From Candidatus Altarchaeum sp. (lineage in GTDB: Archaea; Altiarchaeota; Altiarchaeia; Altiarchaeales; Altiarchaeaceae), in NCBI GenBank assembly GCA_018260615.1, contig JAGWDQ010000094.1:1-32330 (forward strand): 32,330 nucleotides of DNA. The letters run 5' to 3'. Within the stretch, counting starts at the first letter, position 1, and each line of letters begins with the position of its first letter. Shown piece by piece: positions 429-32,330 of the stretch. Position numbers and translations under genes: made by a program. A model generated the notes under the pieces. It had not been told where the DNA came from. It saw only the letters and a list, made by a program, of their open reading frames with translations, and ran no database searches.

Positions 429-533
429 TTATGGTCTTACTTCAAAAAGTTTAATTTTTACATCCAAAATTATATATTTTTTAACTTCAACATTATATAA
501 TTTGCACTTTATGAATCCTTTTCCTGAAATCAT

Positions 534-1898: not shown

Positions 1899-1976
1899 TT
1901 TAAAAAACTTTTATCAAAACTTATTATTTGTTATTTTATTTTTATTTATAGAGATTTAATTAATTAGAACTTTTAG

Positions 1977-2430
1977 TAAAAATTTAATTTCATTTATTAA
2001 TTTATATATTTTTAATTAATTTATTAATTATTAATTTATTTATACAAATTTAATTAATATATAAACATTTAATTAATTAATTTATTAATTTATTTATACA
2101 AATTTAATTAATATATAAACATTTAATTAATTAATTTATTAATTTATTTATACAAATTTAATTAATATATAAACATTTAATTAATTAATTTATTAATTTA
2201 TTTATACAAATTTAATTAATATATAAACATTTAATTAATTAATTTATTAATTTATTTATACAAATTTAATTAATATATAAACATTTAATTAATTAATTTA
2301 TTAATTTATTTATACAAATTTAATTAATATATCTTAATTTATTAATTTATTAAAACTTTTTAATTTATTAATTTATTAATTAATTTATTAAACCTAATTT
2401 TAATCTCTTAACCTAAAATTAAAATAATAT
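1977..2430. promoter_or_regulatory. Extremely AT-rich divergent promoter region, with no G on the + strand for 454 nt
   Basis: The last G before the tract is at 1976 and the next is at 2431. It lies between the divergent start codons at 1898 (-) and 2452 (+). The promoter role is inferred from position. Confidence 0.6.
2028..2332. repeat. Perfect 54-bp tandem repeat (VNTR), 5 full copies plus partial flanking copies
   Basis: Unit TATACAAATTTAATTAATATATAAACATTTAATTAATTAATTTATTAATTTATT starts at 2041, 2095, 2149, 2203 and 2257, with a partial copy at 2311-2332 and a 13-nt partial at 2028-2040. There are no spacers. Confidence 0.97.
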
Positions 2431-2451
2431 GAATAAATTAAACTAAACAGA

Positions 2452-2544
2452 ATGGACCAAAAAGTAAACATAAAGGGTTTGTTATTATTGGGATTTCTCG
2501 GAATTATAATAGGAATTTTAATAGGAATTCAGGATGTTTCTGCA
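2452..2544 (+). other. Signal peptide of the giant protein (aa 1-31)
   Basis: MDQKVNIKGLLLLGFLGIIIGILIGIQDVSA|YSG has a basic N-region, a long hydrophobic core and a V-S-A signal peptidase I motif. Confidence 0.85.
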
Positions 2545-5500
2545 TATTCGGGACTGCTCGGAAGTGAATTCGTTGTTTATCCGCCGGATGACTGGAATAC
2601 AGGGGGAACTTTTAATGCGTTAGCGTATGATAATATTGGTGCCGGAAGACCTTCTGTTGCAGGTGTCATTCTTACTAATAATACTTATTGTGAAGTTGAG
2701 GTTATGCTTGATGACGGGAAATATTATAAAATTTATACCGGAATAAATTTAAAGGAAGGGATGGTGATGGATTTCTATGACGGATGGAATAAGACCAATG
2801 ATAACAGGGTTTATAATCATACCTGTAATTGTCCCGCTACAGGAAGTTGTAATTGTTCCTGCACTACAAACGGTGGTGATGGAGGCGGAAGTAATGCAAA
2901 TAATTGTACTTATAATGGTGGGGGTATCAACATCGGCGGAAAGATAATGCACATTGTTTGTAATCAACCAATTTATACATTTACCGCAGAGGTCGGAAGT
3001 ATGAGAAGTCCGGTGGGAAAATCCGGAAAATTTAATGACAGAAATTACATTATTCATTTTTCTAATAATAATTGGGGTGGCCCCCTTTTTATGCTTATAT
3101 CAACTCAAAGGCCAAATACAACAATAACAATTCAGGAAATAGATCCGACAACGGGAAGCAATATCGGAGCGGCTGAAACATTCAATTTAAGCGGAAACGG
3201 TGCTCAAGAGCCGGGAATTGCAATAAGAACCATGACTCCAAGAGATTTAGGAATGCCTTTAAGGGGCAGTGCATCTACTTCTACATATAAAATTACAGCA
3301 AATGAGCCGGTTTTTGTTGAACAATATCTTAAACATATTGATACTTTAAATTGGCTTGGAGCAGAAGATGACGGGACATTAATGGGAAGAACTTATTTAA
3401 CAGCATCAGAATCTAGTCCAACAGGAGGGGTCATATATAATCCAAACGATTATTCAATAAATGTAAGTGTATATAATAGTAATAGAGGGTATACAACAAC
3501 CGGAAATTTTAATGATTCTATTATTACATGGACTGCTGCTGCAACCTGTAATATTCCCGCGAATAGTTATGGGAGATGTTCTTATAATGGTAACAAAGTG
3601 ATTGTAAAACTAAATTCTACGGACAGATTTCAGTTTATTGGAGGAGATCTAACTGCCCAAAATCTATATTCTCTAAATCATTTTTATACAAGAATTCCTC
3701 CTGTAAATAAAATGGATACAAACTTTAGTACAAGATTCGCTATTGCGCAAGGTCGAGTAGGTCATTATTCAGGGGGTGGCAATCGAGGTGGTGCAGCGTA
3801 TATCTGGCAATTGCAGGGATGTGAAGATAATTTAATAAATTTTGATCCAGGAGCAACAATAACATATGCTGAAACTGCCGGGACAATACCTGCAACATTT
3901 CAGGGAAGGAATACAACTTTAAATTTTACAAATTATGGCAGTATAACACAAACAAGTATTACTGCATGTAACGGAAGTTTTTCTTTATATAATGTTATGT
4001 TTTTAAGTCCTTTGAACGGAGCAGATTACAATTGTGGCAGTATGTTATCTACTTGTAATCCACTTGTGGCTTATTGTAGTGTTTCTTGTACCTGTGCCGA
4101 AAATGGTATTGGTCTTTTTGGGCCAATAACCCTGATGGCAGGAGAACCGTGGGCACTGGATTTAAAAAACGGGAGAATTGCAATGACATGGGATTGGGGT
4201 ATGAGTAGTTTATATAGCATGAATATAAGATATGGAGATAATGGAACAAGCGGGATAATTCGTCTGGGAGGAACAGAGGGATTATATGGAAGTGGAGATG
4301 ATAGTAACATAAAATTTAACTCAACATCTCCGGTTAAATTTTACAGAATCGGACTTGCGGAATGTTCAAATTCCCCGATTGAATCGGAAAGTCCTTATAT
4401 CGTCATTGATTCTGATGCACAATCACCCTTAACGATAGGACAAACGGGCTGGGTAAATTCAACGATAACAAATATCGGAAGCAAGGAGGCAATTGACAAT
4501 ATAATTATTCATGAAATTCCTCCGAATATGGAGTTTATTTCTTCAACATTCAGATTGTTCTTTAAAGATACAACGGACTCAAATTTAACAGACATTACTG
4601 GAAATATAACATTGATACTGGGAAATAATGAAAGCGATTGTAAAAACATGATTACAGATATTCATACTGCAAATTATACAAATCCGGCAGTTGTATGTTA
4701 TTATCAGCAGTATTTTGGCGCCTTAAAGAAAACTTATATTCTTATTAACACATCAACATTTGAAGGAGTAACAACGCAGGATGAAGGAGATAAAGTTGTT
4801 TTCTCATATCGGGCAACATTGCTTGAAGGAGATCCTTCAGGAAAAATTTTTGCATATACCTCTTCAAAAGGACAATATTGTGCACCTTATTTTGAAGGTG
4901 AAACAAGGCCCATAGAGGTATTGGCAATAATTGAAATTTTAGTTCCGTCTTTAACAATTTACAAGGAAATTACACCTTCTATGGTAGGTGTTGGTGACAA
5001 TATAACCGTCAAGGTCGTATTTTATGATTTATCCGGCTTAAACATTACAAATTTAACAATTAAGGATTTTAGTTTTAAAAATTTTACTTATAATGAGGAT
5101 GCAAATTATACGAGAACAGGAGTAAACATTACACGAACAATAACTGAAACAAGAAATACCACAACATATCAGATTATTTCATTTTCAATGTTAAATGAAA
5201 ATGTAAATAACATTTCGGATGCGTGTTCGGAATGTGTTCAAAAAACAAGGGTTTATAATGCCACAAAGGTTTATGCCGGAACCGTTTTGACAGATGTAAT
5301 ATTTAACTACACATCCGCTTTTATAAACAAGACAGGAACACCTGAATATGTATTTAGAAATATTCCTGGAGCTATAATAAACAGCACACAAATTGGAAAT
5401 TGTACATGTTCAAATGGCAATAATTGTACAGGTGATACTAACTGTCAACAAAATTGCGGTTCCGGAACATCATATACTTGCATCTATAATGAAACAAGAA

Positions 5501-8500
5501 TGGATTATTACAATTATCTGATATTTACAATGAAGGCAAATGATACGATATTTCCGGAAAATATGACAAATTGTGTAGAGGAAGGCAGCGTATTAACACT
5601 GAGAAGCGGTAATGGCGCGCCGATAAATTCAACGGCAAGATTCTGTATAAGTCCCCAACCCGGAAATGTTTCTCTAAACAAAACTATGAGCCAGCTAAAC
5701 TTTACTCCCAATGAAACGGCATGGATTAATGTAACAGCCAATGTTTCCCTTGATTTTGTCTCTCCGAGAGTGGAAATTGGTGATAAGCTCCCTTCATGGT
5801 TTGAATTTACAGGAGAAGCATATCTTTACGAATACAACATTTCTTCGAAAAATTATGATTTAATCTGTAACATTTCAGTTAATGGAAATAATTGCTCAAC
5901 ATCAATTTCGGATCCGGTAATAAGTAATGATTATGGAGAATTAAGAAAGATTGTATCCTGGACAATGTTTAATAAATCATCATATAATTACAGAATTCAA
6001 CTAAAGGTTAAGGCATTGGCACATGATTTCTTAAATAATGCTCCAAATATGTCCGAGGAAGATACCAGAACAAATATTGCATTTTCAAAAATTTATTATC
6101 CCGGCGGAGGATACAGATATGATGCGGCATCTTTAAGGGGTTTAATGATTATTCCGCCGGAATTAGGTGTTTATAAAACGATGATTCCGACAAAAAGCAC
6201 ACCATATTATACGAATGACACCATAACATTCGTAGCAACGATTTGCGAATTATCCAATACATCTTCATGGTATGATGTTGAGATTAATGATATTATGGGA
6301 CCGGGACTGGAATATAAAGATGTGGCAAAATGGACTTACTGGAATGGAAGTAGTTATGTTACCTCTGACATTTTCTTGTCAAATTCTTCTGTTACTTGTC
6401 CTCAGGGATTTCAAGAAAGTTCCGGAAATTGTACAAAACTAAATGCTTCTTATCTTTCAAATGAAAATTTAAGTGTGATTTATAAAGGAACATGTGCTTA
6501 TTTGACATTCAAGACAACAGTAAAGGAAGGGACATTACTTGGAAGTTCTTTAAAAAATGATGTGTATGTAAATGTTAGAATGGCGGATCATACGCCTATG
6601 AAGGGTAAGGCTACAACCTACCCTGTGACAGAGTATGAAAATTTAACAATAAATAAGGTAGCAAATACATCTGTTGCTGAACCCGGCGACTTTGTAAATT
6701 TCACAATAAGTATAACAAATAAAGGCAATAAAGATATAAAATATTTAAGAATAACTGACCTGCTTCCACTATATTTTGAATATCAAAGTGGTACCGCATC
6801 ATTTAATTATTACAAAAATGGTTCTGTAACTCCCAATATGACCTTTTCTTTAGATACGAACACTATATTTGGAAATGTTTGCGGGACAGGAATAAATGCT
6901 ATAAATGACAGCGGGCAATTACTTTACTGGAGCGTATGGGAACAAATCGGAGAAAATTTCTCTGCAAATGATACAGTTAAAGTTACATTTACAACAAAAG
7001 TAGTAACAACACCCTGTATGGTTAGTGGTCAGCAGAATGTTACAAACACGGGAAATGCTTATGGATATGTGTGGAACGACAGTAAAAACGATTACGATGG
7101 AATTTATGCGACAATAAGAGCTCCGTGGATTTTGGTTATTCCTCCTGCATACTGGTGTGATGTAAAGGTAGGAAATTTCTTTATTGATAATTCAACAAAC
7201 GAAGGGAATATTGAATATATACATATGAGCGGAGAAGTGAATGGAATTTCCGTTTACAATATAATCCATTACTTTAAATTTGCTCCGAATTATACTGTTA
7301 CTAATATAACAATAGAATACAGAAATCAAACAGGAAGATATTTCTATGCTATTCCGCTATATTGTGCGGATATTTTGGGGAATTCGTCAGTTGGAACAAA
7401 TGTTACACTTTCAAATCATACGGCAAATTATTCAAATCCAAATTGTAGTGCCCTGGCATTATACTCGCATTTAAAAGGAACAAGTATTTATACACATATA
7501 TTTGTAAATTTCACAGGAAATGCAACGGTTTGCAGTTCAAGTGAAGCGTGGGCAGGAGACGGATATATGATTGGATGTGCGGGAGGATGTTATAATCTAA
7601 CACAAAGAGTTCCTCCGTTTCCGGGAATAAATTTAACTAAACATGTCTATGCAAGTTGTGCAGAACCGGGAGATATTGTTAATTATTCCATAACTATGAA
7701 ATTAAATGAAACAACAACGGCAAGAAGTTTAAATATATTTGATGCCTTTTTCTTCGGTTCAAATTATGTTCCTGGTTCAACAAAGATAAATGTTACCTGT
7801 GGTAATGGAAACTCTACTATCTATACCGGTTCAAACTATGAACCCGTTATTACGGGTGCAGCAAACGATGTTATATGGTGGGATTTGAATACGCTTGATA
7901 ACGGTTGTCCTCAATGTAGCGGATGTCCTGATAATACAGAACCATGTGATTATGGTTGTGAGCCATGGAAGCCAAAAATAGGTGTTAACTTCTTCGGTCC
8001 AAATTCAACAATAAATGTCTCATTCCGGATGAAAATAAATTCATCTGTTTCATATCCCAATAGCGACAATAATGAAAACACGGTTCCGGTAACATTTGTT
8101 TATATAACTTCCAAGGGAGAAATTGCATTTTCAGCAACAGGTGCGTTTGAAAAACTACTCGTTTGTGTTCCAAATATAACAGCGAGCAAAATTTCTCCGT
8201 ATGGCGCAGAACCGGGCGATATTGTAAATTTCACGATTTATGTTAATGATACATCGGATTGCGAGTGTCAGCATGTTTATAACACAACAATTGTTGATAC
8301 CTTTACAACGATTCCAAAGACAAATAAGGAACCGTTTATTCCACAAAAGGCGTGGATAAATGGTGTTGAAGTAAGCAGTTGGAATTTAATATGGAATTGT
8401 ATAAGGGATAGCAACAACATTGTCCAAAATTGTACAATTAATTTCTCATATGACCTGAATGATGTTACTGCAAATGGAAATTTAAGTAAATTTAATCATA

Positions 8501-11500
8501 AACAAAATTTAACATTGATAATTCAGGCAAAGATTAATGCTCCTTTAATTACAAACATAACAAATAATGCAACCGTAACTGCTGTAATGGGAGACGGAAC
8601 GCCTTTAAATGCTTCAACAGAAACAAAAACAACGATAGTAGGAAAGAGCAATGTAAGTACCGTTAAAAGTGTAGTTACAGCAAGCGTTTACAGACCAAAG
8701 CAGGATTGCTATGTATTTGATACTTGTTTAACAAGCAATAATGTTGTTGAGCCGGGAGATATTGTTGTTTATAATGTAACAATTACAAACACAGGAACAG
8801 CAACTGCTTTTGATATTTCATTTACGGACTTATTGCCAATTGAATTTAAATATATTGATAATAGCAATGTAAGTGCGGCATTTGTAGGTAAAGAAATACA
8901 TGGTTTGCAGGAATTCCTTACATTTTATGTAGGATATGTGGATAATTCTTCACCAAAATCATTTACCTATAATGTTACTGTAATCTCCGGTGCAAATGAG
9001 GGAATGAACAATAACACCGTCATTGTATCTGGATATGACGGGCTTGGAAGGACAATTCCGAAAGAAGTGAAGCAGGCAAATGTCAGTGTTATAATTCCAA
9101 AAATCAGTGTCAGCAAGACAGCGAATGTTTCACAGGCACAACCGGGCGATTTAATTAAATTTACTTTAAACATTACAACAACCGGAAATGTTTATGATGT
9201 TAATGTTACCGATATATTGCCGGATAATTTTGAGTTAATTCTGCCAACACAGCCAAATTATGCAGGCAAGGATGGAAACATATTAAAGTTTAACATTCCG
9301 AACATAAACGGGCAATATTTAATAAATATAACTTTAAAGGCAACATCAAAGTCACAAACATCATCAAATGTATTCTTTGCGGAAGGAATTTACGGCGACA
9401 ATAAACCGGTAATTAGCGACGATGCAAATGTATGGCTCACAATTGTTAATCCGCAGTTAGATGTAGTTAAAGAAATAACAGGTGTTGTATTAAATGGCGA
9501 TATGCTGACAACAGCTTATAAACTAACCATAAAGAATGTAGGACATGGAACTGCTTATAATGTGTTATTTAAAGATACATTACAGCATGGAAATAATTAT
9601 GTTACCGGAACATTCAATGTTAACGGAACTCTACAAAATCCAAACCCTGCTAATAATATATTAACTTATTCCGTTGGAAATTTACAACAGGGGCAGGAAG
9701 TAAATATAACTTATAATTGTTCGGGAAATTTAAGTGATAGTTCTCCGAGCGGATTACAGGGCGGAATTAATCTTGTTACAGTAAATGCAAGCGATGGTTA
9801 TAAAGAAATTTCAGCGCAGGCAACCGCTTCAACCGGAGCATTGTCGGTTTCAAAAACAAAGAATAAGGATATTATTGAAGCAGGAGAAGGTATGACCTTT
9901 ACAGTAACTCTGAATGCTGTAACAGATTTAACAAATGTTGTTGTTAGTGATACATTGCCGTCTGACTGGAGTTATGTGACAAATAGTGCAACGTTGGATG
10001 GAAGTTCATCTGGTTTTACTGTTGTTTCAACTTCTCCATTAACAATAAATATTGGCACATTATCACAAGGCCCACATACATTAAAATATAATGCAACAGC
10101 GGGATGTAATGCATTAAAGCAGGATATGAATAAAGTTATTGTTAATTACACTTATAATAATGGAAATATTGAGTATAATTTTACTTCAAAGCCGGTTTCT
10201 GTAATTGTTAATGTAAAAGGAAAGCCAATTTTAGTTATTAATAAGCAAGTAAATGCAACTTATGCCGAGCCGGGAGATGTTATTCGGTATTCAATAAATA
10301 TAAGTAATTTAGGAGAGTCAAAGATATTAAATTTGAATATTTCTGATAAATTACCTGTTGGATTTAATTATATAGACGGAAGTTCAAAATTGGATGGAAG
10401 CAGCATAGGAGATCCAACACTAACAGGACAGGTATTAAATTGGACAAGTATTATTGGTGTGTTAAATCCCGGAGAAAGTAAGTTATTGACATTTAATGTA
10501 AATGTAACCTCAACAGCAGATGTATATTCATTAAATACTGTAAATGCTACCGGAATAAGCAATTGCCTGGAATTGGTTAAGGAAGCAGAAATTCAAATAG
10601 AAGTTAGAAAGCCGGAATTAGGTATTCAAAAATCAGTAGATCCAAAGTTTGCAACTATTGGAGATACAATTTATTATACTGTTTCAATCACAAACAACGG
10701 GAAAGGAAAGGCATACAATGTTATTGCAAATGATACACATCTGTCAGGTTTTAACTTTGTAAATTCAACATGTGCAAATGTTCTGGATTGTGATCCGACA
10801 GTAAGCGGAAATACATTGACATGGAATGTCGGAACACTTGAGCCGGGACAAACAGCAGTAATTTTATATTCTATGTATGTGAATTCAAGTGCAGCAGACG
10901 GAACAAATATAAATAATATTTTGCTTAGCTATGATGACAAATCAGGAACAACAAATACAAATTATGACAATGAAACAGTACATATAAATGTAGATTGTGT
11001 ATTAAATTTAACGAAGGAAGTTATAAGCATATCTCCATCCCCCGGAAGCAATAAGGCAGAAATAGGAAGCACAGTAACATATAAATGGACCGTAACAAAA
11101 ATAGGAGATTGCGACGACATACGTGATGTTGTGTTGACGGATAACATTCCAAATGGAGGGGATAATTTCGTCAATAAAACATGTGATGCAACGATAAACA
11201 ACAATGTAATAACATGGAATATTGGATACTTATCTGTACCTGATCCAGTAACCTGTGAGTATTCAATAAGAATAAATTCATCGGCAGATGTTGGCTTATT
11301 TACAAATACAGCAAATGTTAGGGGACAGACCGAACAAGGCGTTAATGTTTCAGATGTGGATAAAGCAGATATATGGATTGTAGGCCCGCCGGTTTTAGCG
11401 GTTGAAAAGCTCGCAAATGTAAGTGAAATCTATCCGGGAGAAAGTGTTTTATTTACAATAATAATAAGAAACAATGGAGAATCATCCCTCTATAATTTAA

Positions 11501-14500
11501 CAGTTGAAGACAGATTACCCGATGGCTTAAGTTTAGGAGGAAGTGCAAAATTAAATGGCGCTGCTTTAAGTGATCCAACGGGATGTCCGAATTGTGTATT
11601 TAATTTACAATCAGCGGGTGCATTAAAACAAAACGATGTATGGGAACTGACATTTAATGTTTCATCATCAACAACTGTTAGCGGAAATTTAACAAATCTT
11701 GCTATTGTAAATGGAACGAGAGCAGATGGAACAACAATAATGCAGGATAATGCAACAAAGACAATAGATGTTTTAACATCAGATATTACTATTGAAAAAT
11801 CTGCTGATAGGTCAAATGCCCAAACAGGAGACACAGTAACATATACAATTGCTGTAAGAAACACAAAAAATGCAGAAATTTCTCTTAACTTTACAGATAT
11901 ATTACCAACAGGATTTAACTATACAGATAACAGCTTACAAAACGCAATGTTTGTAAGTTACACGCATCCAACTCTTAAATTTAATGCAACAATTAAGGCA
12001 GGCCAAATCTTGTTTATCTCATACCAGGTAAAGATAAATTCATCGGCAAACGGAGCATCCACAAACACAATATATGTTGACGGAAAAGATAAAAATGGAA
12101 ATCCGATTCCGACAAAGAATGCGAGCGAAACAGTTAATGTAGGAGCATCTAATATTACCTTAAATAAAGACAGAAATCCGGGTGACGGAATGATAGAAAT
12201 AGGAAGTAAAGTTAATTATACAATAACTATAAACAATACCGGCTCGGTTCCGATATATACTTTAACAATAAAAGACAAGATTCCATCCGGTTTGTTAATT
12301 TTAGGAGTAATAAATTACAGTGATGATACACAGGTAAATAATTCGTTAACGGGAAGTTGTAATAATATAACTAATTATTGTGAATTCAATATTTCGGTTT
12401 TGAATGAAAACAAATATGTTAAATTTATCATAAAAACAAAGGTAATAAGTAACCAGTCAGATAATAACAATCAAATATCTGAAAATTTAGCGAATTTGAC
12501 ATATTACGACGGAGCAGGAAACAGGAGTGATACAAACAAGTCGGCAAATCTATTTACTGTCAAATATCCGGTTATTGAAATATCAAAGGTTTATGTTGAA
12601 GGAACAGACAAACAACCGGGGGACCTTGTGCATTATAATATTTCTATAATTAACAAGGGATTGGGCTTTGCAAATGTTACAATTAATGATACATTTGACA
12701 GCAGTTTGGAAATAATTAACTGGACAAACGGAAGCTGTAGTAGCGTACCATCAAATCCAGAGCAGGTTTCAAACTCATCTTCGGGAAATTTCTATCAATG
12801 GAATTTAACAAAATTACCCGGAAAACCAAATGCATTGACTCAGGATGTTTGCTGGAATATTTATATAACTGCAAAGGTTAAATCAGATGATTTCTATTAC
12901 AATAAAACAAGAATTGATAACAATACGGTGAATGTTTCATGGACAGATAACAACGGCACGACAAGAACAACAACCAATACTTCAGCAGGAATTGATATTC
13001 TGACTGCAAATGTGACAATAAACAAAACTTCAACGCCTGAAAGGGTAAATGTTTCGCCGGGAGATAATGTAATTTATATAATTGAGGTTAAAAATAGAGG
13101 AAACGGAACTGCTTATAACATACAAATTAACGATACATTGCCAGAAGGATTAAAAAATATAACTTGCAGTTATACTAAAAATGCTTCTGGAACACTAACA
13201 CCTTTACCCTGTTCATGCAATGGAAGAACCTGCCAGTTCAATATTTCAAAGATGGAAGCAAATACATACTGGAACATAACAATAAATACAACAGTTAATT
13301 CAAGTGCAACAGAAATAGCAGGAAACAATGCAACAATTTACTGGAAGGATAATGAAAGTTACAACAATACAACCACAACTGCAAATACATCATCATTAGG
13401 CGTTTTACATCCGAATGTTACAATAAGCAAGATTTCAAATCCTGAAAGTGGAAATGTTGAACCTGGAGCTTTTGTAAATTATACAATTATAATAACTAAT
13501 GTTGGGAATGGAACAGCATACCATATAAGCATTAATGATACAATCCCGGGTGGATTAAATATAATTTCATGGAGCAATACAACAAATGCATCCGCAACAG
13601 TTAATGGTTTATGTAATAATGATACTAACAGAAATCCATGTCAATTTAATATTTCGGTAATGCAAGCAAATACATACTGGAACATAACAATTACTACAAA
13701 GGTTTCTTCAAGTGCAACAGAAATAGCAGGGAACAATGCAACAATTTACTGGAAGGATAATGAAAGTTACAGCAATACAACCACATCAGATACAACATCT
13801 CCGTTAGGAGTTTTGAAAGGAAATGTAACAATACGCAAAACAAGGCAGGGAGTAGGTTGTGTTGAAGTAGGTGACACAATAACTTATATTATTAATGTAA
13901 GTAATTTAGGAAACGGAACCGCCTACAATGTAAATGTAAAAGATATATTGCCAGACGGAACAAAATTTGATACTTCTTCTTCCGCATATCCTGGTAATTG
14001 TAGTAATTACCTAAGCTGTAGCGAGTCACCATCAGAGTCAGGGAATATTTCATGTGATGTTCAAGGAGGAGGCGCACCTGTGGGGCAGTTAAATACAGGT
14101 TGTTGGGCAGGTGCACGGCTTAAAGTAAAGGTTCTTCCCACAGCAGGAAGTAACATTTCAAACAATACGGCATTCCTGAATTACACCGATAATTATACTT
14201 ATGTAAATGACACAGAAAATTCATCATGGAGCGAGATATGTGTAAACAAATCACATATTGTTCTTCATAAAGCACCGCCAGAACCTCCATCATCAGAACC
14301 CGGACACGAATTTAATTATACAATAACAGTAAAGAATGAAGGTACGGGAACTGCTTATAATGTAAACGTTAATGATACAATTCCGGATAATTGTTCTTTT
14401 GTTTCCCAGCAATCAACTGGAAATCCAACTTTCAGTTTAAGTTCAATCGGGGATAAAGCATATTGGGTATATAATAATATTTCTTCTCAAGATAATACTC

Positions 14501-17500: not shown

Positions 17501-20500
17501 ATCTCGTAATTTCAAAATCAGCAAATATTTCATCTCTTGAACCCGGAAATTATGTGAATTATACAATAACAATAGAAAATATACAAACAGGAAGCAAGGG
17601 AACTGCACACAATATAACAGTCAAGGACGAGATTCCCATACAATTTGAATTTATAAGCGCCTCGGCAGCAAAAGGAGGTAATTCGCTGGCAGTAAATCAC
17701 GATTGTTCATCCTCTAATAATTTATGCACATTTAATATTTCCGTTGCTCTTGCTCCGCAGGAAGTGGTAACTATGAGAATCAAAGTACTGGCAAAGTCCG
17801 TATTAACAGATACATCAACAGATAATTATGCAAATGTAACCGGAAAATACGGGGATAACTCTCAAATGAATACAACTAACACAACACCGCCCGCACATGT
17901 AACAATACTCGCATCCCCGATATTGACCATAACAAAACAAGAGCAGAGTTCAACAGCCGAACCAGGACAGCCCTTTTCTTATACAATAAAAGTTTCAAAC
18001 AATTACAACACAACAGCATATAATGTTACTGTTTATGATAATATTCCCGGAAACTGTACTTATATAAGTAATTCGTCTTCGCCATCAGCAGATCGTAGCT
18101 GGAATATAAGCAATACTTATTACTGGAACAAATCACAATTGTCTCCACACAATGACTGGACAATAACCTTGACAATTAAGTGTAATTCAAATGTTACAAC
18201 AGTAAATAATACGGTAAATGTAAGTTATAGTGATGGTTATCAATATATCAATAATCAGTCAAATTCAACGGGCACATATAATGATAAGGTAACAATTACA
18301 AAGCCAACAGTGACTGTAACAAAGACAAGAACAACGCCACCTGGAAATGTAAATATAGGAGGTACAATAACCTATACTTTAAATGTAAATCCAGGAGGAC
18401 ATGCAAATGTTACTCTAACTGATAAAGTTCCGAATGGGCTAATATATGATTCATGTACATCTGCATCAGGACAACCCACATGCAGCCACAATTCAACAAC
18501 AAATATAACAACATGGAATGTTTATTCCAACACATCTGTCTCATTTACAGTTACCTATAAAGTTACAACTTATGCATATCCGGAATTCAATAACACAGTT
18601 AATTACACATGGAAGGATGATACAGGTGGGGAATATGGTCCAAATTCAACAACCTCTATGCCAACAAATGTTTGCAGACCAAATTTAACTTTAACTATTA
18701 CATGCAGCAGGCCGGAAATTTATCAGGGATTAAACGAAATTTGCACAATTACAATAACAAATAATGCAAATTGTTCGGCATATAATGTCAGCGTTGTTTC
18801 GGATGTTCCGGTTAACTTCAAATGCGATCAGGCAGGAGGAGATGCTACCGGAATATGTAATGCAAACAATGCCACATGGTTTATAAGTCAGATTTCAGAA
18901 TATGGAACAAAAATTTTAAATTATACAATGACGGTTGAAAATGATACTAATGTAAATATAACTACACAGATCAATGCAAATGCAACTTACTGGGATCATT
19001 ATGATATAATTTATGGGCAAGATAATTATGTTGCACCCAATTCAACAACAGTAAAGCAATTGCCAAAGCCGAATATAGTTATCTATAAAGATATAAATCC
19101 GTTTATTGCACAGCCGGGAGAAAATGTTGTTTATTCAATAATTGTCAGAAATGACGGCAATTCAACAATTTCTTTGAATAACATAACTGATATGTTGCCT
19201 CCAAACTGGAACGGATGCAATACAACCGGAATTTACGACCAATACGGAGGATTCATTAACAGCGGCCAATATAATATCACTCAATCCGGGGATACATGTA
19301 TAGTAAATTTCACCAATCTAATTTCAGTTTCACCCGGAAAAAATGTTACATGGAAATTTAATTCCTCTGCAAAGCCAAGTGCAGACAAGGGCGCAAACAA
19401 CGATACTCCGTCTGCATGCTATGTTTTGGCAAATCAGACGGTATGTCCGGACGGGCTGGCAGGAAAAGTTGAGATTGTCTATCCGACAGCAAAAGTGATT
19501 AAACAATTTAGTACAACAACTGCAAAGACAGGAATGCAAGTTAATTTTACATTGACATTCTATGATATGATATATGATGTATATAATTTAACATTTAATG
19601 ACACACTTCCATACGGATTAAAATATGTCTCCTCTGCTTTTGAGGGGAATTGTAATGGCTGTACATTATCTGTTTCAACCGCTCCATGTATTGAGGATGC
19701 AGGTAAGACATGCGACTTTATAAATGGAAGTATCGGAAATATGACGCGGGGAAATAATGGCAAGCTAACAGTAACCGTAAATGTTACGGAGAATGTGAGT
19801 GCGGTAAACAGAAATACAGGTTATATATCGTGGCAGGACTATTCCGGAGGCATCGTACAAAATGATACTAACGATGATACTTTATATGTTCCTGTTATGC
19901 CCGCACAAACATTTATTGAAAAATCATTCTATCCGGAAAACAAGGTCTGTTTTAATGCAATGAATTTAACTGTAAAATTAAAGGTATTTACATTAGGAAC
20001 AGACCCGAGAGCAAAGAGTTATAATATTAAAATTACAGACACATTTGAAGGAATGAGTTATATTGATGGAACATGTATTCAAATTTATAGTAATGGCTCA
20101 AGCAGGGCATGTCCATCTGTTATGGATTATGGAAACGGAACAGTAGAATTCATCAATTTAGGAACTCAAAAGGTTGATGACTACTTTATAGTACAATTTA
20201 ATACTAAAATTTGGACCGAAGGGATGAAAAATGATACGGCAATAGTTGAATATTATAATGCATCTTCCGGAGGCGCGAAATTTACCGCAAGTACATCTCC
20301 TGCAAAAATAGGAATTTTGGCAAAGTCATGTAGTTTGGTAGCGGTTAAAAGTGATGAAAATGTATCTCCGTGTGAAGAGGTTACTTATACAATAACAATA
20401 ACAAATTACGCAGGGGAAAAGATGAGAGATATAACTATTATTGATACATATCCACCAGGGTGGAATTTCTCTCACAGTAGTAGTAGCAGCAGCGTGGATC

Positions 20501-23500
20501 CAAATTGTCAAAATACGGGGACTTATGCTGTTTGTCATCCACTTGATAATAATAATAATGAAATCGAATTAATGCCATCAGGATATCCGGGAGACAGCAT
20601 ATCATTTGATATTATTTTACTGCCAAATACAAGCGCTGGAGCATCGTCGGGACAGAATGTAGTTAAGGTTAGTACAATGGGAAGTACAACCAATAAGATT
20701 TATGAAGACGAGATGTCGGTTCCGGCAAATATTATTTTGTCCCAACCATCTGTCTATAAAGGAATATTTTCCGGTGATAAAGCAGATTATGGAGATAACA
20801 TAACGGTGGAAATCACAATAAATAATCCAAGTTCTGGAGATATAACAGTTGAAAAAATTACGGATATAATCCCGCAAAAGTACAATGTCCATCTTCCGGT
20901 AGGCAGCATGCTTAATTGTTCCTTTGATAATAGCAGTAGAGTAATGACCTGCAATGTTAGTATTGTCATTACAAAAGGAGGAAGTGCTAAATTTTATTAC
21001 AATATTACTCCTACATCAGCATTAAACTGCCCGATGGATGGATGCGAATTAAATATTGCCAATTTGACACCTACAATAACAAGTAGAGATAATTGCGGAA
21101 AGGACTACACAACACAAGGATTTTCATCAGGGGTTGTAAAGGTTTATCCGCCGATATTAACAGCAACAAAAACAGCAAGTACCTCACCGGTGCAACCGGG
21201 ACAAACATTCAATTACACTATAACAATAAAGAATGAGCAAACAAATGCAAAAGGAACTGCTTATAATGTAACCGTAAATGACGAAATTCCATCACAGTTA
21301 GGATATATAACTGCTGTATCAAGTAAAGGAACATTAAGTATAAGCAATGTAAGCAATAATTACACATTTACAACAGATGCTTCTCTCGGCCCAGGAGACA
21401 CTATGACAATAACAATTACTGTCAAAGCAAAATCATACCCTTCAAATACAACAGTAACAAACAAAGCAACAATTTATGCAAAATACGGCGACAACAGCAA
21501 CATTTCACCAGTGACAACAAATGAAGTAAATGTAACTATATTATCAAAGCCGGTATTAGATATTACAAAAACACGCTGGAATACATCATCAGAACCGGGA
21601 CATGAATTTAGTTATACTATTACCGTAACAAATACATACCAGGCAACAGCACATAATTTAATTGTAAATGATACAATTCCGGATAACTGCGAATATGTTA
21701 GTTCAAGTCCATCATATTCAGGTGTAACTGGAAAGACATATTCGTGGTTTAAGTTAGAATTAGGAATGGGCGACAATTGGCAAATAACCTTAACAATTAA
21801 ATGTAATTCATCTGCTTATAGTGTTCTAAATACCGCAAGTTTGAATTATGTTGATGGTTCGGGAAGTCCGGGAACAAATTCAAATACATCGGATGCAGTT
21901 GAAATTAAACATCCTCATGTTTCAGTAAACAAAACATTACAAACACCAGGAACAATTAGTGTAGGAAACGTTATACAATATCAAATAACAGTTAAAGAAA
22001 CAGGAGGAGCGCACGCAAATGTTACCGTAAGAGATGCAATTCCACAAGGATTAAAGTTTAATAATTGCAGTGGCGGTGACAATTGTTACAATACAACTAA
22101 TGAAGTGATATGGACATTACGACTAAATCCATCAGACACCAAGTATTTAACAGTGAACTATAAGGTTACAACCAATGCATCCGTCTTTAACAATACAGTA
22201 AATGCAACCTGGATAGATGATGCAAATGGACCGTATGGAACGGATGGGTCAACCAATGCTACATCAGAAACAGCAAGTGTTTGCAAACCAAATGTTACAA
22301 TCAGAATTGAATGTGAAAAACCGTATGTTTATAAAGATGTTCAGGAGGTCTGCCACATTTTTGTTGAAAACCATGCAAATTGCACCGCTTATAATACAAC
22401 AGTTAATGTTCCAATCCCAACGAACTTTGAATGTCAGGTAGCAACAGGAGGAAATTGTATTGCAAATAATGCCACATGGAATGTAGGAACACTTACAGGA
22501 GGACAACTAAAAGTATTAAATTTAACAATGAATGTTGTAAATGATACTAATGTAAATATAACCCATAACATTACAGCATATCTTGAATACAGAGATTATC
22601 CGTTGCCCGATGCAGAAAACCTTGGAAAATACTATTATGGAAATGACACAACAACCGTAATACAATTACCAAAACCGGATATAAGTATAATCAAGAGCGT
22701 AAATCCATATTACAGTGAAAGAGGACAGGAAGTTACTTATACAATAAACATGACAAACAATGGAAATTCAACGATACAAGTGCTAAACATTACGGACGAA
22801 CTTCCAGAGAATTGGAGTTATTGTTATGATTCAGGCATTTCAGCACCCTTATACGGAAATGTTGCACATGAATTATTAAATACATCAAGAAATTGCATTG
22901 CTGTTATCAATCAAACGACAAATGTAATTACTATTAATCCGGGAGAATCATTAATATGGACATTCAAATCGGTTCCTTTGAATAATGCAGCAGGAAGTAA
23001 AGATGGAATAGCACATACAGATACTCCCTCGGCATTTATAAATACCTCGGGAAATGTTCAGGAAGTTCAGGGTTTAGTAGGAAGGGCAGTTGTAAAGTAT
23101 CCCGATATGCAGATACAAAAGAATGGAAAGGAAATAGGAGCGGTTAATGATGTCTTTAATTACACCATAATTGTAACAAATAAAGATATGCCTGCTTATA
23201 ATGTGGTAGTTGAGGATACACTTCCCGGTGGATTTGGTTATCTGAATACTTATCTTGATGCGTGTTTAAATTGTTCATTGATATCAGCAACAAACGGAAT
23301 AATCAAGGTTGATGCAGGAAATTTCACTTCAAACCAGGTAAAGAAAATTTATGTGGAAGTCAATATTACAAATAATTCGGCCGACCATAATATTAACCAG
23401 GCAAATGTTACCTACAAGGATTATTCAGGAACAGTTGAAGATACACAAAACGATACCTTTGATACACGGGTTCCTGTAGGTCCGTTTATTGTAAAGATAA

Positions 23501-26500
23501 CAAAAACTTTAGATCCGCAAAACAAAATATGTTATAATGTTCAAAATATGTCAGTAACATTAAGAGTAGAAGTCATAAGTCAGGATCCAAGAGCAAAAGC
23601 ATACAATATAAATGTAACTGATGAGATTACTGCTCAATTTACAGATTATGTTTCCGGCTCAGGAATTATATGTGATCCAAACTGTCATACATTAGAACCA
23701 AATAAGACCAATAATGCAACTGGATTTGTATTAAACTGGAACACAAATAAGGAGTTAAGGACAGATAACTATTTTGAACTGAAATTTACTTTGAATTCAA
23801 GCAATGAAGAAACAGTTAGAGATACGGCATTCGTTGAATTTGTAAATGCAAGTGTTAATGGAACCTACTTTAAAGAAAATTCAACAGAAAAATCATACCT
23901 TACAAAGAATTGCACACTCGCAGTAACAAAAACAGGAAAGGACAGAGTAAAACCATGTGAAAATGCAACATTCAATATAACGATTTACAATGAAGGAAGT
24001 GAAGTTATGAGGGATGTGTACTTTAGAGATACATTCCCGTCTAAATGGACTTATGTGAGTTCAAGTGACGCATCAGATTCAAGAATAACATGCAATACAT
24101 CAACAATTTCATCAGGATATGTTGATTGTGAATTAGATCAGTTAGTGCCTGGTGAAAGTCATTCATGGGCAATCATACTAAAACCAGATACTACACAAGG
24201 AGTTGATACAGGAATAGAGCAGACAAATGTTTTGGGCGTAGATGCAATTGGAGTTACTTCAAATAATACTTATCATGATGGTACAAAGAAAACAGTAATA
24301 GTTGATAAGACAGAAGCAGGATTATATAAAGAAATTTTAGACACGCAAGCGGATTATGGAGATAATATCAGAGTAAGGATAACAGTAAGTAATAAAGGAA
24401 ATTCAACAATAACATTAACAAAGATTATTGATACAATTCCTGCAAATTTCAACATTTCACTGCCATCGGGTTCAAGTTGCAGTCTTTCTTCACAGGACAT
24501 ATCTACCTTAAGGACATTAACCTGCACTTATGATGTTAAAATTAATGCGTCCGGAACAACAGGAGATAGTTATGAGTTTATCTATAACATTATTCCAACC
24601 TCAAATTTAAGTATATTGACGGATAAAGAAACATATTACTTAAACGCAGCAACAGTAACGACAAAAGACGAATGTAATAACGAAACAACCGACTTAACAA
24701 CAACACCCGCACAGTCAATAACTGTTTATCCGCCGATATTAAAAGCAAGCAAGAGTGCAAATAAGATACAGCTTGAGCTGGGAGAAACATTAACTTATAC
24801 TATAACGATAAAGAACGAACAGACAAATGCAAAAGGAACTGCTTATAATGTAATTGTTTCAGATAATATTCCCTCAAACTTTGAGTATATTAATGCCACA
24901 TTGGATGGAAATCCAATACCAAATTTAAGTTCAAATCCATACACATTTAATGTCGGTAAATTTACTCCCTCAACAACAAGGTCTCTTGTAATAACCGTAA
25001 GAGCAATTTCTTCCGGAGATACAATAAATTTTGCAACTATTAACGGAACTTATGGAGATAACAGCAGTATTTCATCAAAGGACTCAAACAATGTTTCTGT
25101 TAAGGTTTTAGGAGCGCCGCAAATGTCTGTTAGTAAGGAACAGAATGTGACAAGCAGTGTAGAACCAGGGGAATTAATTAAATACACAATAACAGTTAAT
25201 AATTTACAAAATGTTACATCTTATAATGTTAATATAACCGATCAAATTCCGCAATATACTGACTTTAACCGCACTAACGATACTGCTTGTACATATAATT
25301 CATCAACAGGAATAGTTAATTGTACAAAGGCACAAATGCTGGGCTTGGAGATATGGAATATTGAAATTGTGGTTAAAGTTACAAGTAATGCTACATCAGT
25401 AACAAATACCGCAAATTTAACATGGATGGATGGGTTAAATAATAATTTCAGTACTACAAATACAACGACGCCAATTAATGTTAAACATCCGAATGTAACA
25501 ATAAGTAAAGAAATTAAGACGCCTGTAAAAAGTTTCTACGCACCAGGAGATGCAATTATTTATCAGGTAAATATTAAAAATATAGGGGACGGAACTGCAT
25601 ACAATGTAAATGTTACAGATACAATTCCATCAGGATTAATTTACAACACCTCATCTGGACTTACAGCTGTTCAACCAACGATAAGCTATACTTCAACAGA
25701 AATTACTTTGTTCTTTGACAAAATTGGAGTGGGACAAACAGGAGATACTTTAATTTACTTTATTGTTAACACAACCGCAACTGATACATCTTTGAACAAT
25801 ACCGTAAATGTAACATATAAAGATGGTTACGGAAAAGAATTTAATGCGAGCAATTCAACATCAAATGCAAATCAAACAACAATTTGTCATCCAAATGTTT
25901 CAATAAGCATAAATGCAAATCCATCAACGACATTCTATCAAGGACCGGAAATTTTATTCACGATAAATGTTGATCTGTTAACACTATGTTCAGCACACGA
26001 TGTTGAAATTTGCGTAACATTGCCTGATGAAGTTAACTTTATTGCAGGTTCTGCGAGTCCGCAGCAATCAAGCATATCCCCGTTATGTTTCAGTTTAGGC
26101 GATATTTCAGGAGATGCAGCAATAACATTTAACGGAAAAGCAAAGAATGTATCAGCAATAACAATAAGAAATGTCACAATTAACGGAACATTCAATGATG
26201 GAATTAATACACCATTTAACACAAGTGATAATCGCACAGAAGTAACAATATTGCCTCCACCAGATGTTTATGTTGAAAAATCATGGACGCCAAACAGAAA
26301 TTCACCTGATTTCTTTGAACCGGGAGAAACAGTAAATATAACTTTAACAGTAAAGAACAATGGAGATAATGCAATAAATGTGACAACATTAACAGACAAC
26401 CACACACAATATTTGGAAATTTTAAGGACAATTTCTGTAACGGGACCATCAGGAGCAATTAGTTACACAGAAGTTTCAAATACATCAACGAACTACACAA

Positions 26501-29500
26501 TCAGCATTACCCCAACAGTTCTGAATAAAGGACAACAAATTGTTTGGGTTATTGAGGCAAAGATAAAGAAAGAAGCAGTTAATGATTTAGCAAATGCTGG
26601 AACAGATGCAGGAATTGCTTGTTATGTGCCTTTAGTTGAAAATGCAAACCAAACATGCACAATTCCAATTCCAGCGACAATTCCAACACAAGAGCCGGCA
26701 TTTAAGGTAGAGAAGCGCGACGTAACAGGAGGATCAGGAAAATCACCATACAATATAGGAGAAAATGTTACTTATGAAATCAGTGTTTATGCGATAAATC
26801 CGTCAACAAATTCAAGACCTGTTTTAAATGTATTTATCAATGATACTTTGCCAGAGGGCTTTACTTATGTGAGTAATTCGGCAATATGTAATAATACACA
26901 ATGCATTCCGACAATAGACGGAAGTAATCTCATATTTGGACCATTTAACATAACTAACGATGCAAGCAATAAATTTGTAATTAAATTTAATGCAACGATT
27001 GGAAAGAATGCATCAACTCCATCAAAGAATTTGGCAACAGGTAAAGGGGAGGATTATGCAGGAAATGAAGTTAATAACACTGCGCCGGACGGAGAAGCAT
27101 CGGTAAATGTATTAGTTCCACAGCCAGTTATGAATATAGAAAAAGATGTTCCACCGAAGTCATATATAGATACCAATGTTACAGTTATATTGAAAGTAAC
27201 AAACGGAGGCGGAACAAGTGAGGCAACCGCTTACAATGTTTCAGTAAAGGATATTCTTCCATCTGAAATTAATTATGTCGCTGGAACATCACAAATAACA
27301 TTGCCGAATGGAACAATTATAAGTCAGGACCCGGTAATTGGTGGAAATATATTAACATGGCAATACTTTACAATTCCATCAGCAGCGTCAGGAAACAATT
27401 CATTAACAATAGAATTTAAAGTCACTTCAAGTACAACAGGAACATTCACAAATGTTGCTAATGTAACTGCTTTGGATGTTACTGATAAGTTATGTTCCGC
27501 ATGTAATAAGAGCGATACTAAAGAAATGTTCTTTGGAATGTCAAATCTGACAGTTATACCTACAAATAACATTGCTACAACACCTTGTAAAGATGCAGAA
27601 ACAAATATAACAATAACAAATAAAGGAAACAATTTAACAAATGTAAATCTAACTATTGAAGTTCCAACTGGTTGGAGCATAGTTAATTTAACAGGGGATA
27701 ATGCATCTAAGATATCTGGTAATATGTGGACACTTTCAGATCTTCCGACAAATTCAAGCATCACATTGACATTGACTGTGAAAGCAAATTCCTCAACAGC
27801 ACTTGATTCCGAAAATATAAATGTAAGAGTTGATGGCTTTGATGTTATAAAGAACGGCACGGTTACAGAGACCACTATAATTAAGGCAAACTATATAAAA
27901 CCAAGTCCACAATTGAACAAGGTGATGCCGCAGGCAGCATCGGAAGTTGAACCAGGAGATATAATACAAATATGTATGGTTATAACAAATCCACAATCAG
28001 GAAGCGCACCATTTATGGTAACGAATATCAGCGATAAGATTCCGGATGGATTTGAATTGGTTGTTGGAAGTAGTACAGGTTGTACCTTCTACGATAACGA
28101 TACTGGAGGATATGCAGAATGTACTCCGAATGTGCACCTTAACAAAGGTCAAAACTGGCAGGCGTGTTACAGCATAAAGGCAACATCAAATGTTCCAAAT
28201 CCGATAATTTATAAGGTCGCAAATGTAACATTTGAGGATGATTGTGGAAATGGACAAGCAAGCTCAGCACCAATAAACGACAATCAAGGTCCGTACGACG
28301 GAACATTCTACAAACCATCATTATCAGCAACAAAGTCAATTTCGCCATCAAAACAAACATTTATCGCAGGAGCAGACACAATAACTTACAATATAACAAT
28401 AACAAATGCAAATCAACCGAAAGGAACCGCACATAATGTTACAATAACAGATACAATTCCAGAATATCTGAACTGCTCAACATCTCCTGCAACAATTGAC
28501 AACAAGGCATCCGGCTTAAATAACGCAACATACACATGGAAATTTGATAACATAAGTCCAAATGATGCAGAGACAATAACCTTAACTTGCCAGATTTTAC
28601 CGCCTGCAAACGGAACAGCAAATTTCACGAATGTTGCGTTCGTTAATTACACAGATGGTTATGGAACTCCACAGGATCCGAAGAATGGAACTGCATCACA
28701 AATCACTATTTACGGTGTTTCCACTTTACAAATCACAAAAGTAGAGTTCAATGTAACACAATCAATGGAACCAGGAGATGTTTATATTTACACTTTAAGA
28801 GCAACAAATACAGGTACGGCGCCAGCGTATAATTTAATTATAAACGATACATTGGACACCTGTGTAGAAATACAAGGCATAACAAATTCAACAAACGAAA
28901 CAACTGCTGTTATGAATGGAGGTTGCATAAACAATGTCTGTCAGTGGGATTTAAGTAAATTATCAGAAGGTAATTACTGGGAAGTAAACATTACAGTTAA
29001 GATAACCTCAAACTGTACGACAATTCCAATAAACACAGCAAATCTTAAATATGCAGCAGCAAATGGCACAGAATACTCAACAAATAGAAGTACTCAGCAG
29101 CCAATCATAGTTCATCATCCAAATGTAACAATAAGTAAAGAAATTAAGACACCTGTAAAAAGTTTCTACGCACCAGGAGATGCAATTATTTATCAGGTAA
29201 ATATTAAAAATATAGGGGACGGAACTGCATACAATGTAAATGTTACAGATACAATTCCATCAGGATTAATTTACAACACCTCATCTGGACTTACAGCTGT
29301 TCAACCAACGATAAGCTATACTTCAACAGAAATTACTTTGTTCTTTGACAAAATTGGAGTGGGACAAACAGGAGATACTTTAATTTACTTTATTGTTAAC
29401 ACAACCGCAACTGATACATCTTTGAACAATACCGTAAATGTAACATATAAAGATGGTTACGGAAAAGAATTTAATGCGAGCAATTCAACATCAAATGCAA

Positions 29501-32330: not shown

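Follow-up and report, generated by a model that had tools for sequence, protein, structure and literature searches.

The window analysed here, a 32,330-nucleotide stretch of DNA that makes up positions 1-32330 of a contig 39,648 bp in length, raises the question of whether a reading frame that stays open over most of its length belongs to one real gene and, if so, what kind of protein that gene would encode. We conclude that it is probably a single, real, and very large gene of an Altiarchaeales archaeon from groundwater, whose product, at least 12,347 residues long, would be a fibrillar surface protein that is exported by Sec and heavily N-glycosylated. The giant protein can be placed in the CLIPPER class of fibrillar adhesins as an extreme case, not as a categorically new one; its stalk domain is already known, and its undescribed parts are (i) the family to which its head belongs and (ii) the solenoid partner that is encoded next to it.

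The open reading frame and its assembly

Frame +1 is open from position 2452 up to the window edge (2452-32328, + strand), which amounts to 9,959 codons without a stop in our open-ended ORF listing and its translation, and the five remaining frames contain 409-891 stops over the same stretch. The region is 35% G+C, a base composition at which 7.7% of random triplets are expected to be stops; 9,959 codons without a single one would arise with a probability of ∼1e-344. Frame +1 from position 2452 is a genuine coding sequence, and both the open frame of at least 29.9 kb (at least 9,959 residues) and the very large protein size that the initial annotation of this DNA had claimed are borne out. The same annotation had the frame leaving the window and suggested that it be followed through the flanking contig to its stop codon. 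The frame is indeed open at the window edge, but this edge is a 100-N scaffold gap (32331-32430, immediately past the window end), behind which the ORF resumes; it then continues through the flanking sequence, but the contig ends before any stop codon is reached.

On the post-gap side, a single frame remains open for 2,405 codons up to the contig end. The same 55-bp sequence directly flanks the gap on both sides, and the 17 residues encoded by its two occurrences are the same and in phase. By reading these 55 bp as a k-mer overlap and taking the N gap as having zero length, we obtained a merged frame of 12,347 codons (2,388 of them beyond the window) with a predicted mass of 1,334 kDa and a pI of 4.8, in which no stop codon is reached; 12,347 residues is a lower bound, with the 3′ end of the gene absent from the assembly. 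The contig end falls inside a 12/24-bp repeat that codes for (GAKV)n. Neither this repeat nor the Pro/Ala tail was found on the other contigs of the genome by exact and peptide-level scans, relatives of the last non-repeat region were found neither among longer proteins nor in a metagenome scan, and the tail query matched low-complexity glycine-zipper proteins only. The 16S gene of the source genome is archaeal. In view of the low G+C content, we also considered a methanogen as the source and rejected it, as mcrA was not found in the genome.

We considered whether the 37-kb frame could be an assembly artefact, either a chimera of paralogous DUF11 genes or a mis-resolved repeat, with a true protein that is much shorter. 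The state of the assembly lends some weight to this explanation: the source genome is only a draft (2.23 Mb, 148 contigs, 87% complete), the frame contains a 100-N gap with a near-perfect 3.2-kb duplication abutting it, the contig ends within a repeat, and other DUF11 genes of the genome are broken at repeats (contigs C43/C128 and C126/C61, for example). A self-comparison of the contig nevertheless confined long DNA repeats within the giant gene to three places. At the first of these, a 3,231-bp block that encodes eight domains is present as copy 1 (25470-28700, + strand; domains 50-57) and copy 2 (29100-32330, + strand; domains 59-66), which are 99.8% identical to each other, with their final 3,179 bp fully identical; copy 2 ends at the N gap, and its last 55 bp reappear directly behind it. 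The two copies are joined by a unique spacer of 399 bp (28701-29099, + strand), which encodes one domain without an identical twin (domain 58). Since this spacer leads from the end of copy 1 into the beginning of copy 2, the block must, if the spacer is real, be traversed at least twice. The second place is a 354-bp tandem pair behind the gap (contig positions 35875-36588), and the third is a 164-bp pair with 87% identity. The 354-bp units, which encode one domain each, share 99.7% identity and lie 6 bp apart, constituting a second recent in-frame duplication.

Outside these three places, no DNA repeat is long enough to misguide an assembler, and the domains are mostly just 25-47% identical to one another; with repeats longer than ∼160 bp restricted to the three places, the body of the gene is therefore uniquely assembled. 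Moreover, a chance join would be in frame in one of three cases each time, yet the 12,347 codons contain no stop, and the join at the gap is in frame with its 55-bp overlap. Further, the 5′ 1.95 kb corresponds to three separately stored database protein fragments, 100% identical to our translation, which tile residues 1-650 and one of which was traced to a different assembly accession, GCA_002841105.1. In view of this evidence on both sides, we regard an assembly artefact as very unlikely. The duplicated block accounts for ∼1,077 of the 9,959 residues in the window, and its copy number is beyond what a short-read assembly can settle: with one block copy only, the protein would be ∼1,210 residues shorter and the gene would still stand, and hidden extra copies could exist, in which respect, too, the protein length is a lower bound.

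The genome contains several more large DUF11 surface-protein genes that are broken by the assembly. Contig C43 carries one at 479-9925 (3,149 residues, 3′ open), whose terminal motif is also the motif at both ends of contig C128; the latter (3,231 bp, all ORF, 1,077 residues) looks like a collapsed, near-identical repeat unit. Contig C1 (1-15014) encodes 1,671 and 3,343 residues with a short N run in between, and the end of contig C126 matches the start of contig C61.

Architecture of the predicted protein

The start codon and signal peptide (2452-2544, + strand; residues 1-31) comprise two Lys residues, a 17-residue hydrophobic core (Kyte-Doolittle value of 2.48 over residues 4-31), and a predicted cleavage site between VSA and YS. 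Directly past it, the mature N-terminus Y-[ST]-G-L-x-G-x-E-F is conserved in all eight aligned sequences, and every relative of the head has a signal peptide first and then this conserved start. The initial annotation had claimed a signal peptide followed by a unique head, and both points are borne out; residues ∼32-648 have zero matches in Pfam and NCBIfam.

The head (2545-4395, + strand; ∼620 residues) is a predicted all-β, multi-domain region. Among 1.84 billion representative proteins, a search with it returned 10 matches, namely three identical fragments, six true relatives with ∼32% identity, and one spurious repeat protein. It is present in three of the 61 genomes of the phylum, as well as on three more metagenome contigs. 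Alignments of the relatives revealed (i) an invariant motif, H-I-D-T-x-N-W-L-G-A-x-D-x-G, within the head and (ii) a common motif, C-S-N-x-P-I-E-S, at the head/stalk border. The sole complete relative is a protein of 3,100 residues from Ca. Altiarchaeales archaeon WOR_SM1_SCG. In these relatives, it is the head that is conserved, and the stalks and C-termini are divergent. Judged by its sequence matches, the head belongs to a rare, conserved, and unnamed family.

We modelled the head with AlphaFold, counting model residues from residue 30 onwards; the model was all-β and of low confidence (pLDDT 56.6, pTM 0.58). Model residues 266-372 (∼295-401 of the protein), a stretch that begins at the invariant motif, resembled jelly rolls of the CBM32/35/36/22/6 type and the lectin PA-IIL with middling Z scores of 6.5-7.8, and model residues 164-294 resembled small β-sandwiches with similarly middling Z scores of 8.1-8.5. 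In this low-confidence model, these resemblances hint that the head may contain a module of a carbohydrate-binding type. We also sought a named structural homologue for the head, for which Foldseek against the PDB returned multi-jelly-roll matches with TM <0.15 only, and we considered an IgGFc-binding-like or dockerin-like identity for the head or the neighbouring gene product, for which Pfam and NCBIfam give no support.

The remainder of the visible protein is mostly stalk. Using an HMM that was built iteratively from the repeats of the protein itself, we counted 82 DUF11 (CLIPPER) domains in the merged protein, 66 in the window (one of them marginal) and 16 after the gap; with Pfam alone, the significant DUF11 stretches numbered 47 before the gap and 16 behind it. 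The figure of about 67 domains given in the initial annotation is thus matched closely by the own-domain HMM, and the two families that it had proposed as search models, PF01345 and TIGR01451, both score above their cut-offs. PF01345 reached 488.9 and 732.5 bits when the window protein was scored in two halves, as well as 400.6 bits in the post-gap part (cut-off 24.6), and a 1,141-residue sample of the array (residues 2090-3230) scored 258.7 bits with TIGR01451 (cut-off 24) and 101.9 bits with the isopeptide-forming domain TIGR04226 (cut-off 30). The stalk begins with seven irregular DUF11-like modules (4396-8718, + strand; domains 1-7, residues 649-2089) of 121-173 residues each, which are enlarged and Cys-rich, score more weakly, and have inserts and gaps in between. 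These are followed by a regular array of 59 head-to-tail CLIPPER/DUF11 domains (8719-32328, + strand; residues 2090-9959), within which a nine-domain super-repeat is present in three diverged copies (14254-25104, + strand; domains 22-30, 31-39, and 40-48). For most domains of the super-repeat, the domain identity matrix places the best match, 33-47% identical, at a distance of 9 or 18 domains.

A profile built from 16 domains of the protein matched the CLIPPER crystal structure PDB 9IFR over the entire domain with an E value of 1e-7 (profile positions 2-119 to chain residues 6-120); at this sequence-profile level, the stalk domains share its CnaA-like Ig fold. The Lys, Asp, and Asn of the isopeptide bond in 9IFR are aligned with conserved Lys, Asp, and Asn residues of the repeats; the full triad is found in 56 of the 82 domains, with Lys retained in 63, Asp in 72, and Asn in 72 of them. 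Judging from these residues, most stalk domains are probably isopeptide-braced. In the CLIPPER domain studied by Costa et al. 2025, the Lys-Asn isopeptide bond lifts the melting temperature from ∼45 to ∼80 °C and guards against proteinase K, and some members of the DUF11 family are without this bond (PMC12617251). One domain per nine-domain unit lacks the triad Lys and Asp (domains 24, 33, 42, 51, and 60; window positions 15049-29600), with Ile in place of Lys and Val or Ser in place of Asp; Asn is retained in four of these five domains, and domain 33 contains Gln. Such periodic unbraced domains could lend the stalk extensibility or flexibility. If each domain spans 4-4.5 nm, 82 domains would give a stalk length of roughly 330-370 nm.

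The merged protein contains 678 N-x-S/T sequons (5.5 per 100 residues), which is 2.4 times the 278 ± 13 expected from composition-preserving shuffles. By comparison, ORFs of at least 300 residues in the same genome have a median of 0.6 sequons per 100 residues and an observed/expected ratio of 0.99. Since the genome also encodes an STT3/AglB homologue, this sequon excess makes it likely that the giant protein is heavily N-glycosylated.

Past the last DUF11 domain, the visible protein continues with two other β-rich modules of ∼110 residues each, for which no family match was found. Next come a Pro/Ala linker of ∼70 residues, an Ala/Val/Gly stretch of 21 residues that resembles a glycine zipper, and, last, the Lys-rich (GAKV)n. 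The Ala/Val/Gly stretch (merged residues 12,288-12,308; Kyte-Doolittle value of 2.07) is the sole hydrophobic window apart from the signal peptide and is a weak TM candidate; glycine-zipper families match the C-terminal end below threshold. Among the anchors that the initial annotation had proposed to look for (TM helix, PGF-CTERM, PEF-CTERM, cohesin), this hydrophobic candidate is what we found, and PGF-CTERM, PEF-CTERM, and cohesin anchors were not found in the visible part. No sorting signal was found with NCBIfam in the last 369 visible residues, which stop short of the true C-terminus, and no archaeosortase (PF09721) was found in the 87%-complete genome by a search that is insensitive, its control having recovered one of four archaea. 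Several large DUF11 paralogues of the genome end with a TM helix and a basic stop-transfer sequence (RRKK or KKK), and in four of them this is followed by a cytoplasmic tail of ∼100 residues without a Pfam match (contigs C133 [L017:137-616, - strand], C15, C61, and C1); by eye and unaligned, the tails of C133, C15, and C61 contain a loosely similar stretch just past the TM helix. By analogy with these paralogues, and in keeping with the positive-inside rule, the visible end of the giant protein, from its Pro/Ala linker through the hydrophobic helix to the Lys-rich repeat, may be the start of a membrane anchor, a reading to which we give about even odds.

The solenoid neighbour and the proposed mechanism

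Divergent from the giant gene, the window contains a gene (P0002; 534-1898, - strand) for a protein of 454 residues that combines a TM helix at its N-terminus with a Cys-rich segment and a Cys-pair α-solenoid (residues ∼170-454). The protein has no Pfam or NCBIfam match. Its solenoid is well predicted and contains invariant Cys pairs, and searches against the PDB returned generic TPR, SLR, and designed-repeat matches only, none at E ≤ 0.001. Upstream DNA is available for five relatives, and in each of them a homologue of this gene is the immediate upstream neighbour of the head-bearing gene, which together with the window makes six loci. The gene is single-copy in the genome despite at least 10 other large DUF11 genes, and full-length matches (>325 bits) occur in just three of the 61 genomes, the same three that carry the head. 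The solenoid gene associates with the head and not with giant genes in general, and this conserved neighbourhood is a new observation.

A wider family of Cys-pair solenoid proteins of 500-600 residues occurs in 13 other Altiarchaeota genomes (examples are G005:C132, G013:C12, G055:C2, G056:C3, and G058:C61). We considered whether the pairing extends beyond head-bearing genes, and rejected this, as the distant homologues at the G013, G055, and G056 loci do not adjoin DUF11 giants. In WOR_SM1_SCG, a gene whose product has an acylphosphatase-like N-terminus lies upstream of the solenoid partner (L012:13539-15351, - strand); the published hamus locus likewise has an acylphosphatase neighbour (PMC4460559). 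The solenoid gene and the giant gene diverge from an intergenic promoter region that is filled by a tandem repeat (2016-2353) of a 54-bp unit in 6.4 copies (97% matches), which is nearly pure A/T and contains TATA-like words. A change in the copy number of this repeat could tune or switch both promoters.

We propose a mechanism, which we consider likely as a whole, of an exported and glycosylated fibre that is held at its C-terminus, presents a head, and has a solenoid helper. A single chain would be exported by Sec, N-glycosylated by AglB, and held in the cytoplasmic membrane via its C-terminal end. Its isopeptide-braced and glycan-shielded stalk would extend ∼330-370 nm and present the N-terminal β-sandwich head with its CBM-like module, whose ligand would be located on another cell, on a polymer, or on a mineral surface, and the membrane-anchored solenoid protein would be dedicated to the head, either helping it or docking it. 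The placement of the head at the N-terminus and of the sole anchor-like element at the C-terminal end fits a binding head that is held far from the cell. Of the features of the fibrillar-adhesin class, the signal peptide and the stalk are present in the sequence, the binding of the head is putative, and the anchor candidate is weak; head binding, surface display, and filament length are what we infer from this arrangement. Two observations count against a membrane-anchored fibre: (i) the complete relative from WOR_SM1_SCG has no C-terminal TM helix and a C-terminus dissimilar to that of the giant protein, and (ii) the Altiarchaeales lineage is reported to have two membranes (PMC4460559), of which such a fibre would have to pass the outer one. 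The WOR_SM1_SCG relative (MCBE01000110.1; L012:4158-13460, - strand) ends in two copies of a ∼95-residue unit with the motifs GWNLI and GDWFGDLSEI-x-P-x-KGYW, for which no family match was found.

Two other functions were weighed against this proposal. The protein could be a giant glycoprotein of a coat or matrix, forming a hydrated, protease-resistant, and virus-shielding layer in the manner of halomucin, with a head that is merely structural. The extreme sequon density (5.5 per 100 residues) and the acidic pI of 4.8 would suit such a layer, our searches with the head yielded no ligand assignment, and the at least 10 further large DUF11 proteins of the genome could jointly form a coat. However, conservation among the relatives lies in the head, with stalks and C-termini that vary, and the head has a conserved partner gene of its own, so a specific functional tip fits better than bulk material; in addition, stalks are where rigid Ig arrays with isopeptide bracing are typically found (PMC12617251). 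We therefore consider a coat function unlikely. Alternatively, the long exterior and the anchor-like element near the C-terminus are reminiscent of the topology of SPEARE-type proteins, in which a long adhesive exterior and a TM helix are combined with a cytoplasmic restriction-endonuclease-like domain that handles a partner cell or symbiont, and SPEARE-like cytoplasmic sequences have been reported from Altiarchaeales assemblies (Hamm et al. 2019, PMC6642349); any cytoplasmic part of the giant protein would lie in its unassembled end. Against this, serine protease, laminin-G, and toxin-like domains are absent from the 12,347 residues, in which Pfam identified Ig-like families only, and the cytoplasmic tails of the paralogues in the genome are ∼100 residues long without a Pfam match. 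A SPEARE-type function is, in our judgement, very unlikely, and we retain the head-presenting fibre as the preferred reading.

Relation to known systems and significance

DUF11 is the usual stalk of bacterial and archaeal fibrillar adhesins, and the CLIPPER type structure 9IFR comes from B9T28_05395, an adhesin of 2,129 residues from Acinetobacter silvestris (Costa et al. 2025, PMC12617251). The giant protein resembles this adhesin in (i) its stalk domain, with the triad retained in most domains, and (ii) the order of a signal peptide, a non-repeat N-terminal head, and a tandem stalk. It differs from CLIPPER adhesins in its size (82 domains and at least 12,347 residues), in a head that is not a known adhesive domain, in having no OmpA, sortase, or archaeosortase-type anchor in its visible part, in its conserved solenoid partner gene, and in its very high sequon load, which is consistent with archaeal N-glycosylation. 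Among 458 scored candidates of 5,477-17,429 residues, 38 proteins were DUF11-rich, all of them below 8,000 residues and mostly bacterial where the source is named. The literature that we searched contains no link between Altiarchaeales and an adhesin of this giant CLIPPER kind.

With respect to large archaeal proteins, the SPEARE proteins of Nanohaloarchaeota (up to 8,553 residues) and the halomucin of Haloquadratum walsbyi (∼9,000 residues) were the largest named in 2019 (PMC6642349), and archaeal proteins of more than 10,000 residues are rare and mainly from Asgard archaea (bioRxiv 10.1101/2023.11.21.568195). Like these SPEARE and halomucin proteins, the giant protein is a single, mostly extracellular chain from an uncultivated archaeon, rich in adhesion domains and probably anchored near its C-terminus. 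It is longer than both, is built almost wholly of one Ig-like domain type, and, unlike them, contains no protease, laminin-G, toxin-like, or nuclease domains in its visible part.

The hami of the same archaeal order are polymers of ∼97-kDa (or 1,808-residue) subunits and are 1-3 μm long (PMC4460559, PMC4975002), and the hamus subunit of Ca. Altiarchaeum hamiconexum contains S_Layer_N, NosD, and FKBP_C domains (PMC4975002). We rejected the identity of a hamus subunit, as none of these three domains was among the Pfam matches of the head, of the window protein as a whole, or of the part behind the gap. Both structures would be glycosylated, β-rich surface fibres for attachment; the giant protein is one covalent chain, whereas hami consist of many subunit copies.

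In its design principle and its mass (1.33 MDa before glycans), the giant protein is comparable to megadalton bacterial repeat adhesins. In these, of which Marinomonas primoryensis MpIBP (∼1.5 MDa), Salmonella SiiE, and Staphylococcus Ebh are examples, around a hundred Ig-like repeats form a long, rigid array that spaces a ligand-binding region from the cell, and stalks of this type are Ca2+-stiffened (BIg domains), with type I secretion and an N-terminal anchor. The giant protein would instead use isopeptide bracing, Sec, an N-terminal head, and a C-terminal anchor.

A more far-reaching reading is that the head and the Cys-pair solenoid form a two-gene, Altiarchaeota-specific attachment module of a kind not described before, with a fibre of more than 12,300 residues and the longest CLIPPER array. 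Taken as a whole, with (i) a solenoid that docks or matures the head, (ii) the attachment role, and (iii) the claims of record length, we hold this to be rather unlikely. Were it true, Altiarchaeales that are hami-less or hami-independent would use it to attach to partner cells (DPANN symbionts, for example) or surfaces, and its fibre would be among the longest archaeal proteins on record.

Genes like this giant DUF11 gene are missed by ORF callers and fragmented in short-read assemblies. A chain of ∼1.3 MDa with 82 probably braced domains and several hundred glycan sites would be an extreme test case for the export, folding, glycosylation, and anchoring of very long proteins in archaea, and it would extend the CLIPPER adhesin concept, which comes from bacteria, to its largest example so far, an archaeal one. 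Altiarchaeales are abundant subsurface carbon fixers with an unusual envelope and hami, and their remaining surface machinery is undescribed; the rare head and its faithful solenoid neighbour provide two expressible targets for learning what these cells bind.
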